Of a stretch of 64,000 bases of DNA, positions 59,701 to 61,848 are shown piece after piece. Where the stretch lies: positions 1 to 64,000 of the IMG/VR virus record IMGVR_UViG_3300027795_000039. The stretch is one strand, 5' to 3'. Both the position numbers and the translations under genes were made by a program. The stretch is from a virus. The notes below the pieces were generated by a model. It was given only the letters and a program-made list of their open reading frames with translations, searched no databases and was not told the DNA's origin. The stretch's first letter is position 1, and every line of letters starts with the position of its first letter.

Positions 59701-61848
59701 GCGGGCGGCAAGTAGTCAACACCAGTTGGTGTTTCTACAGGCCGAAGCCATTCTTTACGTCGTTGCCACTGAGCGAGAGCAATTTCACTGAGATTTTCTT
59801 TCCATACTGGATCATTCCAGAATTTTCTCTGTGATTCATACCACGCTTCAGTATGACGAGAACCGTTACATCCACGTTTCTGGATTTCGATGCCAGCTTC
59901 TACGAGCCACTTGCGTGCCTCGCCATAGTTAACACCGTATTTTGCGCCAAGCTTTCGCAAGCCGCCGGTTTCTTCGTAATCCTGTTGAAGCTGTTCTTTG
60001 CTAAGTGATGTGCTGCGTGTAGTCTCTACGGAGTCCCCAGGCTCTGGGGTTCCCTCGGTATTGTCCATTAATTTTATCCTACCACATGGTAGGGAGAGGA
60101 GTCCACCGATATAGCAGCATTGTCATCTGCCTGTTACCAAGCAGCGGGGCCTCGAAGATAACTTTTAGTAATAGAAAGTTACTCTCTGTTAACCCTGGCC
60201 GGCGAATTGCGCCAACCACGAAAGCGCTTCGGTCAAACCGAAGAAACGGTCATTTTGTTACTCATCGTTTAAAAAACGATGGGACTAGTCATTTCTGCTA
60301 GTCTCTACGTGTTTCCACGCAGATCAGACTATACCATAATCTGATGTAAATCAGACTCCGCGCGTCTAGTCGTTACGGACTCGCCAATCACTGGATGCAA
60401 TTGGATTGCCTCGGTATTGTCCACATAACCACTGATTTTCATCAATGCGAAGGAGTTTCACCGATACAGCGCGGTTTGCACTCACACATTACTGCATGAG
60501 GCCCCTACCATTCTTCATAGCGAGGGAACGTTCAAATCTACTTCCGTCTGCGAGCCAGACGGCGGTAGATTCATGGGCCAGTTCGTCGCACTCATGGTCC
60601 CAGAGTTTTGTACCAACTCTGGTATACTTATATCGACGACCCCTTGACCACCAGTTTGTGATCCACTGATGCCCGTGAACACCTTCGCTTGCCGTGCGGT
60701 ACCTTGACCAGCAGGACGAGGAAGCTTATTACGAAACACCGTATACACTGGATTGTGCTGTTACCTTCACGATCACTCGTGACGGGCTGGTCATCTCTGC
60801 CAGCCTCTTACGCTTTGACGTAAGACCAGACCATATCTTCGCCCGCCTCAGCGGGGTCGCGTGCATGGTCGTTGAACCTTCCCATTCTCATCCCGAGGAG
60901 TGGGCTCGGCTGCTGATCATCCCTACCACGTATTTCTCAAGCATTCGCGCTCATGTTTTCACATCACGCTGTAGCATACGTGTCTAACAGGAGGTTCCAG
61001 CAATTCTCGCGATTTAATCACGCTCATTACTGAGCGGAGATCCCTCCACTTGAGATCAGCCGCGAAGGTGCGACACTACTTCGCATTCAAGTGGAAGACA
61101 CACGCGTTACCGCGTGAGGACCCCATCGCAATGAAAGGTCGAACGGAACAAGGCCGGACACTGATCCAATGCCAAGTGCTAATTGTTACTCATCACATAG
61201 TGTGATGGGCCTGGTTGTTTCCACCAGACTCTGCAATTTTACCATCATTGCAGTTCGGAACGTCTCATGATCCATAAACGTTGTACTGTAGCATCTCAAT
61301 ACGCGATTCATCATGGATCCAGTACATACGTTCTCTGCACTACGATAGATGCCATCGTAGCTCAGGATTACCCATAATATGGAGGGCTTCCCCTGAACAG
61401 TACTGTTATCAGCTACTCGTTACCGAGTGGCGGGGCCACTTGACCCAGCAGTGAAACTTTTGGCAACTTCCGCCCCACCCGGCATGCTCGCCAGCAGCTT
61501 CTGGATCTGCTCAACAGGCGACGGGGTGTTTAGCGCAGTTGAGAGAAAACCTCTTTGCGCTAGGAAATCTGGACTCATACCCTTAACAACACTCGGGCGG
61601 TCCGTCAGACCTTGGTAGATCGACGTCCTGAGATCCAGCGTTGCCTGTGCTGATCGCATCAGGATTTCGCCTGGGTCGCTCAGCGGCTGGTTGAGGCCCT
61701 GGGCGTAGGTACAGCCCTTGACCAGGGTGGGCATACGCGACTTGATAACGTCGCTTACTGAGCCGGAGCGGTGTGCTTCGACTGCAGCCTCCCGTCCCGG
61801 GAGGCTAAGGTCGGGTCCAATCGGGACCTCGACGGTGGTGGTAGCCAT
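56717..61848 (-). CDS. Major capsid protein, 11 exons, 608 aa after splicing
   Basis: Exons 61848-61443, 61178-61136, 61075-61053, 60753-60523, 60250-60192, 59223-59171, 58906-58066, 57764-57746, 57440-57374, 57101-57048, 56747-56717 sum to 1827 nt in one frame; includes capsid-like GLVPFDLVAPSRLIYPVYTVFRNKLPR and VVHPWL; capsid identity is from motif recall and position. Confidence 0.8.
56748..57047 (-). ncRNA. Group I intron 10 (300 nt)
   Basis: P1 GGCCU/GGGUC with U.G; GAGAAUUGCUGGAA, AAUCAGCAGC, GGUUCAACGACUA, AGAGAGAGUC; terminal G. Confidence 0.9.
57102..57373 (-). ncRNA. Group I intron 9 (272 nt)
   Basis: P1 CCU/GGG; CUGUUCAGGGAA, AAUCCUGAGC, GCAGAGACUG, AGAGACAGUCC; terminal G. Confidence 0.88.
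57441..57745 (-). ncRNA. Group I intron 8 (305 nt)
   Basis: P1 GACCU/GGGUC; same core family as intron 10; terminal G. Confidence 0.9.
57765..58065 (-). ncRNA. Group I intron 7 (301 nt)
   Basis: P1 CGCU|AA/UUGGCG; same core family as intron 10; terminal G. Confidence 0.9.
58907..59170 (-). ncRNA. Group I intron 6 (264 nt)
   Basis: P1 GAU|CA/UGGUC; same core family as intron 9; terminal G. Confidence 0.88.
59224..60191 (-). ncRNA. Group I intron 5 (968 nt, ORF-containing)
   Basis: P1 GGGU/GCCC, 9-bp P10 UUCGAAGAU/AUCUUCGAG; CCGUAGAGACUA, GAUAUAGUCC; terminal G. Confidence 0.9.
59253..60068 (-). CDS. Intron-encoded DUF559-like endonuclease/maturase
   Basis: YYVDVLL...LAIEID...R..EIRDSGIEIVRF; ORF overlaps the ribozyme core at both ends. 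Confidence 0.7.
   Translation of the reverse strand: MDNTEGTPEPGDSVETTRSTSLSKEQLQQDYEETGGLRKLGAKYGVNYGEARKWLVEAGIEIQKRGCNGSRHTEAWYESQRKFWNDPVWKENLSEIALAQWQRRKEWLRPVETPTGVDYLPPAEAELQDALKRASVSFTSNAIVLRGKYYVDVLLHDRLLAIEIDAKPDRVMEEYNVKRSREIRDSGIEIVRFAAEDIFAHADECVRSLSIPAEENPECTIRSPQRTYGLLRSAQVGRRKSDDDIVRSALMEKMQKQAEMTCSPDDDNESK
60251..60522 (-). ncRNA. Group I intron 4 (272 nt)
   Basis: P1 CCCU/GGGG; CUGUAUCGGUGAA, AAUACCGAGG, CCGUAACGACUA, GGUAUAGUC; terminal G. Confidence 0.9.
60754..61052 (-). ncRNA. Group I intron 3 (299 nt), predicted terminal A
   Basis: P1 GAUCU/GGAUC; full core; frame and P10 (UCCA/UGGA) put the 3' end at ...UAACAGCACA|AUCCA. Confidence 0.8.
61076..61135 (-). ncRNA. Core-less 60-nt group I mini-intron (intron 2)
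   Basis: P1 GACCU/GGGUC, 7-bp P10 UGUCGCA/UGCGAUG, P2 CACGCG-GUAA-CGCGUG, terminal G, in-frame TGA, no P3-P9. Confidence 0.75.
61179..61442 (-). ncRNA. Group I intron 1 (264 nt)
   Basis: P1 GGGU|CA/UGGCCC, 5-bp P10 CACUU/AAGUG; same core family as intron 9; terminal G. Confidence 0.9.

Follow-up and report, generated by a model that had tools for sequence, protein, structure and literature searches.

A group I intron that ends in adenosine rather than in the near-universal guanosine appears to interrupt the major capsid gene of a virus from a soil metagenome. The stretch analysed here, hereafter called the window, comprises the first 64 kb of the 132,026-base-pair (bp) record IMGVR_UViG_3300027795_000039, which is classed in IMG/VR as a provirus and as 93% complete. 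Ten intervening sequences split its capsid gene, and the third of them (intron 3) is confirmed by protein conservation, that is, by sequence comparison, to have A60754 as its last base, the position termed omega. In group I introns, the guanosine at omega is nearly invariant and takes the place of the guanosine cofactor in its pocket when the second step of splicing occurs. We favour, with a probability of roughly 0.62, the reading that intron 3 is a real omega-A intron in which the helices P9.0 and P10 hold the 3' splice site and the second step is probably slow, the A being derived and tolerated.

The 3' end of intron 3 in a capsid gene

The elements needed to follow the argument are listed below, all on the minus strand, with lengths in nucleotides (nt).

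56717-61848, minus strand: host gene, assigned by structure modelling to the HK97-fold major capsid proteins, with 11 exons and 10 intervening sequences, coding for 608 residues after splicing
61076-61135, minus strand: mini-intron I2, 60 nt, with helices P1, P2 and P10 and no ribozyme core, ending in G61076 and kept in the related contigs L037 and L038
61053-61075, minus strand: exon 3, 23 nt, coding for VAPSRLI and the first base of the Tyr158 codon, ending in U61053
60754-61052, minus strand: intron 3, 299 nt, one of the full group I introns, in family A (see below), matched by Rfam RF00028
60754-60756, minus strand: the last three bases of intron 3, A-C-A, with A60754 at the omega position
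60523-60753, minus strand: exon 4 (YPVYTVFRNK...), starting with A60753, with U60752-A60749 in P10

The exon map was built by tblastn with an intron-free homologue, followed by placement of landmarks and translation of the joined exons, and the resulting 608-residue frame is collinear with the ~610-residue proteins of intron-free homologues from IMG/VR loci. For intron 3, we enumerated donors and acceptors within +/-10 nt and scored the products against ten intron-free proteins. The junction of U61053 to A60753 was the unique best, with a score of 115.2 versus 108.7 for the runner-up and no tie with a terminal G. On the minus strand, positions 60765-60745 read GGUAAC, AGCAC and A, followed across the junction by AUCCAGUG, with A at 60754, C at 60755 and A at 60756. 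An earlier note on this DNA, made from the sequence alone, had proposed that intron 3 ends in A, and the enumeration bears this out.

Joining U61053 to A60753 yields RLIYPVY. The motif APS[RH][LM][IL]YP[VMI]YT occurs without any indel in 120/120 homologues examined (the best 120 of 853 proteins with E <= 1e-5), and its Tyr-Pro pair is invariant in all ten intron-free loci. Two other junctions are in frame, using G60748 with U at position -1 (RLI-L-YTVF) or G60758 with C at position -1 (RLI-HN-PVY), but both lose the conserved Tyr-Pro, which only the A60754 junction keeps. The statement of the earlier note that no other junction restores the frame has to be narrowed accordingly: this junction is the only one that restores the conserved protein, and not the only one in frame. 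Intron 3 has a terminal adenosine at a position set by exon homology, the property by which natural omega-A introns are recognized.

The function of the host gene was assigned mainly from structure models. A Pfam search with the capsid protein returned no family, its PHROG match, phrog_13692, is listed there as of unknown function, and a search of PDB sequences gave none or chance matches only. A first AlphaFold model based on 10 close sequences had a predicted local distance difference test score (pLDDT) of 39 and was of no use, and an Atlas search gave a lead to SU10_MCP only. The AlphaFold model of an intron-free homologue (L006), with 71 diverse relatives in the alignment, reached a pLDDT of 80.7 and matched the capsid proteins of Pa223, SPO1, SU10, HK97 and T5 in Foldseek, which returned 112 matches at E <= 0.001 (best 1e-11), with the capsids of Pa223, SPO1, SU10 and HK97 ranging from 1e-11 to 1e-6. 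Judged by these models, the gene at 61848-56717 is a phage major capsid gene with the HK97 fold. It is present in a single copy across the 132-kb record, and capsid production should therefore require the accurate removal of every intervening sequence.

RNA anatomy of intron 3 and its orthologue

The following parts of intron 3 bear on its 3' end.

61039-61057, minus strand: helix P1, in which exon bases GAUCU (61057-61053) pair with the guide GGAUC (61043-61039)
60829-60870, minus strand: helix P7 with the guanosine-binding pair G60870-C60829, where A60872-U60828 closes above the bulged C60871
60825-60827, minus strand: joining segment J7/9 (GGU), forming the P9.0-type pairs G60826-C60755 and U60825-A60756

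Rfam detects six group I intron cores between 61848 and 56717 on the minus strand, of which five reach or exceed the gathering score and the sixth has 48.8 bits, and none elsewhere in the whole record. The match of intron 3 to RF00028 (60807-61067) scores 50.7 bits for a cut-off of 50, and introns 7, 8 and 10 score from 52.5 to 69.5 bits; the mean column identity of intron 3 to the latter three is 72%. To this group, called family A, we added the orthologue of intron 3 in the IMG/VR contig L037, introns a, b and c of L001 and intron x of L018, and we compared the nine introns with their ends set by exon homology. The last base is G in eight of them and A in intron 3 of the window only. RNAalifold gave 73 pairs for the nine introns, 49 of which show compensatory changes, and intron 3 fits this consensus.

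At the 5' splice site, U61053 forms a wobble with G61043 of the guide. The guanosine-binding pair of P7 is G-C in all nine introns, and in intron 3 it corresponds to G264-C311 of the Tetrahymena intron, described as the guanosine-binding pair in PMC10020454, which also treats the role of P9.0. The closing pair of P7 covaries across the family (A-U in six introns, G-C in one and C-G in two). A switch of the pocket to A-U, which might have explained a terminal A, is ruled out by the G-C pair.

In the P9.0 register that we used, bases 2 and 3 of J7/9 pair with the dinucleotide that immediately precedes the final intron base. Both pairs form in eight of the nine introns (17/18 pairs), through six dinucleotide combinations. 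Sliding the register by 1-3 bases lowers this figure to between 1 and 4 of 9, and mismatched combinations of J7/9 and tail pair in 16/72 cases. A Tetrahymena-like register using the first two bases of J7/9 was discarded, as it fits only 2/9 family-A introns by hand count. On the exon side of the junction, bases 60752-60749 of exon 4 (UCCA) pair with guide bases 61045-61048 (UGGA) to form P10, and the first exon base is left unpaired. Of the 40 positions between 60770 and 60731 that we considered as the intron end, A60754 alone unites the conserved peptide with an uninterrupted 4-bp P10 and both pairs of P9.0; for G60758 and G60748, 0/2 P9.0 pairs and no contiguous P10 are found. We file intron 3 as a group I intron because it has the core score, the U.G wobble of P1, the G-C pocket in P7, P9.0 and P10; the terminal guanosine, which is near-universal and not strictly defining, is the one group I feature that it lacks.

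The only orthologous intron found lies at 4084-4380 of L037, and an identical stretch is present in L038, a metagenome contig of 130,932 bp. There, the mini-intron follows the same base of exon 2, exon 3 also has 23 nt, and the family-A intron likewise splits the Tyr codon behind its first base. This intron's end reads UAAC followed by AACGUG, with the canonical G. The aligned segments of the window and L037 have a mean column identity of ~83%, with compensatory changes in P2, P3, P7, P9 and P9.1, both share the family-A core, and P1, the guanosine-binding pair, J6/7 and J8/7 are identical. P10, which the earlier note had already drawn as UCCA/UGGA, is real, as it covaries with UCCG/CGGA in L037 through an exon change that gives a synonymous Pro codon. 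P9.0 covaries as well, with GU in J7/9 and AC in the tail in the window versus AC in J7/9 and GU in the tail in L037. From these compensatory changes and the fit to the family consensus, it follows that the ribozyme fold of the window's intron 3 has been maintained and that its tail has co-evolved with J7/9.

Degenerate patterns were used to look for further orthologues. Two patterns covering the UAAC tail and exon 4 and one covering the P1 region matched L037 only in IMG/VR, L038 and three chance sequences (L039-L041) in the metagenome set, and one chance sequence (L042) in the GTDB genomes. A 17-nt pattern from P9.1 retrieved related introns in another gene (L029 and L032) together with ten chance matches.

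The capsid gene of L037 harbours three intervening sequences versus ten in the window, and the other eight window introns are absent from it. The window (61135-60754) and L037 (4019-4380) have in common a block made up of the mini-intron, the 23-nt exon and intron 3; one further intron is found in L037, at the exon 6/7 site. This block may be inherited or mobile as a unit. Minimum-energy folds of both phages place the 3' segment of the mini-intron in a helix with intron 3's 5' guide region, with one compensatory change. The end of the mini-intron (61084-61076) is also predicted to pair with the middle of exon 3 (61066-61060) in the window and in L037, again with one compensatory change, which on the exon side yields a synonymous Ser codon. 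Translational bypass of the mini-intron was considered and rejected, the helices and the orthologue fitting splicing.

The ten intervening sequences of the window gene consist of nine full group I introns and the mini-intron. Besides family A (introns 3, 7, 8 and 10), introns 1, 6 and 9 form a second family and introns 4 and 5 a third. A U before the 5' splice site and a terminal G can be placed for 9/10 of these sequences, the exception being intron 3, with the U/G placement picked by rule where several placements encode the same protein. The same holds for 14/14 intervening sequences fully resolved in the homologous genes of L001, L002, L011, L014, L018, L023 and L037; three gaps were left out of this count (6852-7969 in L001, 8490-9887 in L002, and the first intron of L016/L018, from 8327 to ~9397). 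In L009, only a 3' end was placed, and it is compatible with G.

The tails that follow UAAC read AAUUAG in intron 1, AAAAUG in introns 4 and 6, AAAAAG in intron 8 and AGCUUG in intron 9, in agreement with the five six-base tails listed in the earlier note, as is the G at the end of the other siblings: introns 5, 7 and 10 have longer tails after UAAC, all ending in G, and so does the mini-intron. The UAAC motif itself, usually GUAAC(A), lies 5-11 nt upstream of the 3' splice sites (for instance at 60763-60760, 58915-58912 and 57449-57446). It is common to all three intron lineages and to the introns of relatives, and its letters recur in GUAA-capped P2 loops. Within family A, intron 7 (57818-58075) has an A-G mismatch in P7 just below the guanosine-binding pair (strands GACCA and UGGGC) and is nevertheless the top-scoring Rfam match.

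A probably tolerated terminal adenosine and the alternatives

In the mechanism that we envisage, free guanosine would bind the unchanged G-C pocket of P7 and cut after U61053 in the U.G wobble of P1, as the anatomy suggests. The 3' site would then be positioned by two helices, the 2-bp P9.0 and the 4-bp P10, both shown by covariation, rather than by a terminal G. Finally, the 3' OH of U61053 would attack the bond between A60754 and A60753, creating the Tyr158 codon and the RLIYPVY peptide, at the junction indicated by protein conservation. As the pocket is unchanged, one would expect, in the light of ribozyme work, a second step slower than that of the orthologue ending in G. Since the same module ends in G in L037/L038, the A appears to be a derived change that the partnership with the mini-intron does not require; on this reading, it would be neutral or mildly costly rather than built into that partnership.

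Several points weigh against this interpretation. In the introns of Tetrahymena and T4 td, a terminal G-to-A change reportedly impairs exon ligation badly, and nothing in the guanosine-binding pocket of intron 3 compensates for the terminal A. The sole orthologue found ends in G, which would also fit an A that arose very recently and is harmful, and the provirus class of the record leaves room for a decaying copy. The terminal G of siblings and relatives was chosen by rule among junctions that encode the same protein, and these ends are thus compatible with G rather than independently proven. Runs X1-X4 provided no read coverage at 60754, not a single contig of the likely source run, X1, being placed on the sequence, and the data comprise five DNA runs and no RNA run. 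Lastly, the P9.0 register lies one base further from P7 than that of Tetrahymena as given in PMC10020454.

An adaptive role for the A is conceivable, in which it would act as a kinetic gate. The core of intron 3 would serve both itself and the core-less mini-intron, and its weak 3' end would let G61076 react first and so avoid the skipping of exon 3, the 3' end of intron 3 being kept from competing for the guanosine-binding site while exon 2 is docked. The mini-intron does have P1, P2, P10 and a terminal G without a core, and the complementarity of its 3' segment to the 5' guide of intron 3 is found in both phages, with its compensatory change. Exon 3 is 23 nt long and, as the earlier note had correctly pointed out, its loss would shift the frame. 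In the lineage that acquired the derived A, P9.0 and P10 are intact, and the title of a later paper from the laboratory behind the Coxiella work discussed below ties two closely spaced group I introns to exon skipping. However, L037/L038 keep the mini-intron, the exon and the pairing together with a terminal G, indicating that the arrangement works without the A, which occurs in one lineage only and does not recur. Moreover, intron 3 must still be ligated via its own A, and the action of its core on the mini-intron, or the sharing of one core, is a supposition. The claim of the earlier note that the A exists so that the G of the mini-intron wins the guanosine-binding site is therefore unsupported. 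As a later refinement, the splice-order idea would be mechanistically coherent, but the orthologue weakens it and we regard it as unlikely.

An artefact is a further explanation, that is, an error of base calling or consensus, or a minor allele in a phage population that mostly has G at omega. The record comes from a soil metagenome, 60754 lies outside the read coverage, the orthologue carries G, and a single transition separates the two states. Nevertheless, the prior chance that a random consensus error would fall on exactly this base, out of 132,026, is very low. The separate Logan contigs of the likely source run contain all sampled words of 60400-61500 (a fraction of 1.00), which, as they derive from the same data and are not independent, argues only against a slip of the assembler. 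The neighbouring tail bases also differ from those of the orthologue in a compensated way, so that the tail represents genuinely diverged sequence. On balance, we find an artefact quite unlikely.

Splicing of intron 3 could also be dead, with the A an inactivating mutation in a defective or decaying provirus. Such a scenario would agree with the provirus class assigned in IMG/VR, with the strongly deleterious effect that terminal G-to-A changes are said to have in model introns and with a pocket devoid of any compensating change. Conversely, all 11 exons are intact and encode a full-length protein with every residue that is invariant in the family, the other nine intervening sequences have canonical ends, and the helices of intron 3 are all kept, with compensatory changes. 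In addition, a relative of its core with 2 differences over 143 nt is present in a freshwater run of another study. This makes a dead intron decidedly improbable.

Finally, the use of a nearby G, either G60748 or G60758, to give a slightly altered capsid protein is very improbable, as both products, although in frame and although natural tRNA group I introns with C at position -1 are reported in bioRxiv 10.1101/2020.01.27.920355, break a Tyr-Pro pair that is free of indels in every homologue examined, involve neither P9.0 pairs nor a contiguous P10, and would have to be reconciled with a U.G wobble located at U61053 and not at C61054.

Relatives and known systems

Relatives of intron 3 and of its host gene were found in several data sets. 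In the freshwater run X4, a 151-nt contig covers 60775-60917 of the window and stops before the 3' end; close relatives of intron 3 therefore occur outside soil. Two further viral contigs carry a family-A intron in another gene (8877-9156 in L029 and 4321-4600 in L032), and its P9.0 would fit better with an intron end two bases past the first G after UAAC. In the INPHARED phage collection, neither protein searches nor megablast gave a match, and a distant-mode search with intron 3 returned no more than two matches to its core, both weak and 103 nt long, in jumbo phages of Pseudomonas.

Intron insertion has a hot spot at codons 150-164 of the capsid gene, with at least four sites within ~45 nt in different phages (61136-60735 in the window, 8028 in L002, 9400 in L014, and 6395 and ~7769 in L018). 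Many library representatives of the capsid family (P0132-P0270) are fragments, with ends at profile positions ~158-167, 235, 273-280 and 553. Capsid genes split by introns thus seem to be frequent in this family, with one gene routinely annotated in error as several open reading frames (ORFs). In the relatives P0147 and P0182, the split ORFs start a little upstream of Tyr158.

A Pfam scan was also performed on three ORFs inside or near the capsid gene:

54508-55836, 55843-56640 and 59253-60068, minus strand: three ORFs inside or near the capsid gene

The ORF just downstream of the capsid gene has an ADP-ribosyltransferase exoenzyme-type match (PF03496, E 7e-6). A free-standing ORF is endonuclease-like, of the DUF559/MTES_1575 type, and a related ORF is found inside intron 5.

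If our interpretation is correct, intron 3 would be the second natural exception of the omega-A kind, located in a phage capsid gene that is essential and highly expressed, and with an unchanged guanosine pocket. Together with its G-ending orthologue, it would form a clean natural pair in which to explore the extent to which P9.0 and P10 substitute for the recognition of omega-G, and whether, for introns 23 nt apart, splicing order is adjusted by a weak 3' end. Should the A instead prove to be an evolved kinetic gate, two introns would share one ribozyme, with the order of events enforced. In practice, programs for intron mapping in which a terminal G counts towards the score would put the junction of intron 3 in the wrong place and mis-annotate the capsid gene.

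Intron 3 compares closely with its own family. Like siblings 7, 8 and 10 and introns a, b and c of L001 and x of L018, it has the family-A core, a GUAA-type P2, P9, P9.1, P9.2, UAAC before the 3' end and the same P9.0 register. Unlike all of these and the L037 orthologue, which end in G, it ends in A, and all of them except the L037 orthologue occupy different insertion sites.

Engineered variants of the Tetrahymena ribozyme in which G414 is changed to A reportedly need a switch of the pocket, G264A:C311U, for activity. Intron 3 resembles them in that a terminal A would be offered to the nucleoside-binding site for exon ligation, but its pocket stays G-C, in contrast with the A-U pocket that those variants are said to require.

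To our knowledge, only one natural group I intron not ending in G is in print, that of Coxiella, and a search of the accessible literature for natural non-G ends found no further cases. Cbu.L1917, in the Coxiella burnetii gene for 23S rRNA, was reportedly described by Raghavan et al. in 2007 (J Bacteriol 189:6572) as a group I intron without a terminal G, ending in A. By its title, that work concerns a 34-bp exon between two introns; the A-ending one is reportedly the upstream intron. Intron 3 shares with Cbu.L1917 the combination of a non-G end and a very short exon beside a second group I-type element (34 bp there, 23 nt here). It differs from it by its location in a phage capsid mRNA instead of a bacterial rRNA gene, by its partner, a 60-nt core-less mini-intron instead of a full intron, and by being the downstream element, the upstream one reportedly carrying the A in Coxiella; moreover, a G-ending orthologue is at hand for intron 3. 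The two represent the same kind of exception, with no kinship claimed. We class intron 3 as a probable new member of the known kind of natural omega-A introns, its terminal A being placed by exon homology.

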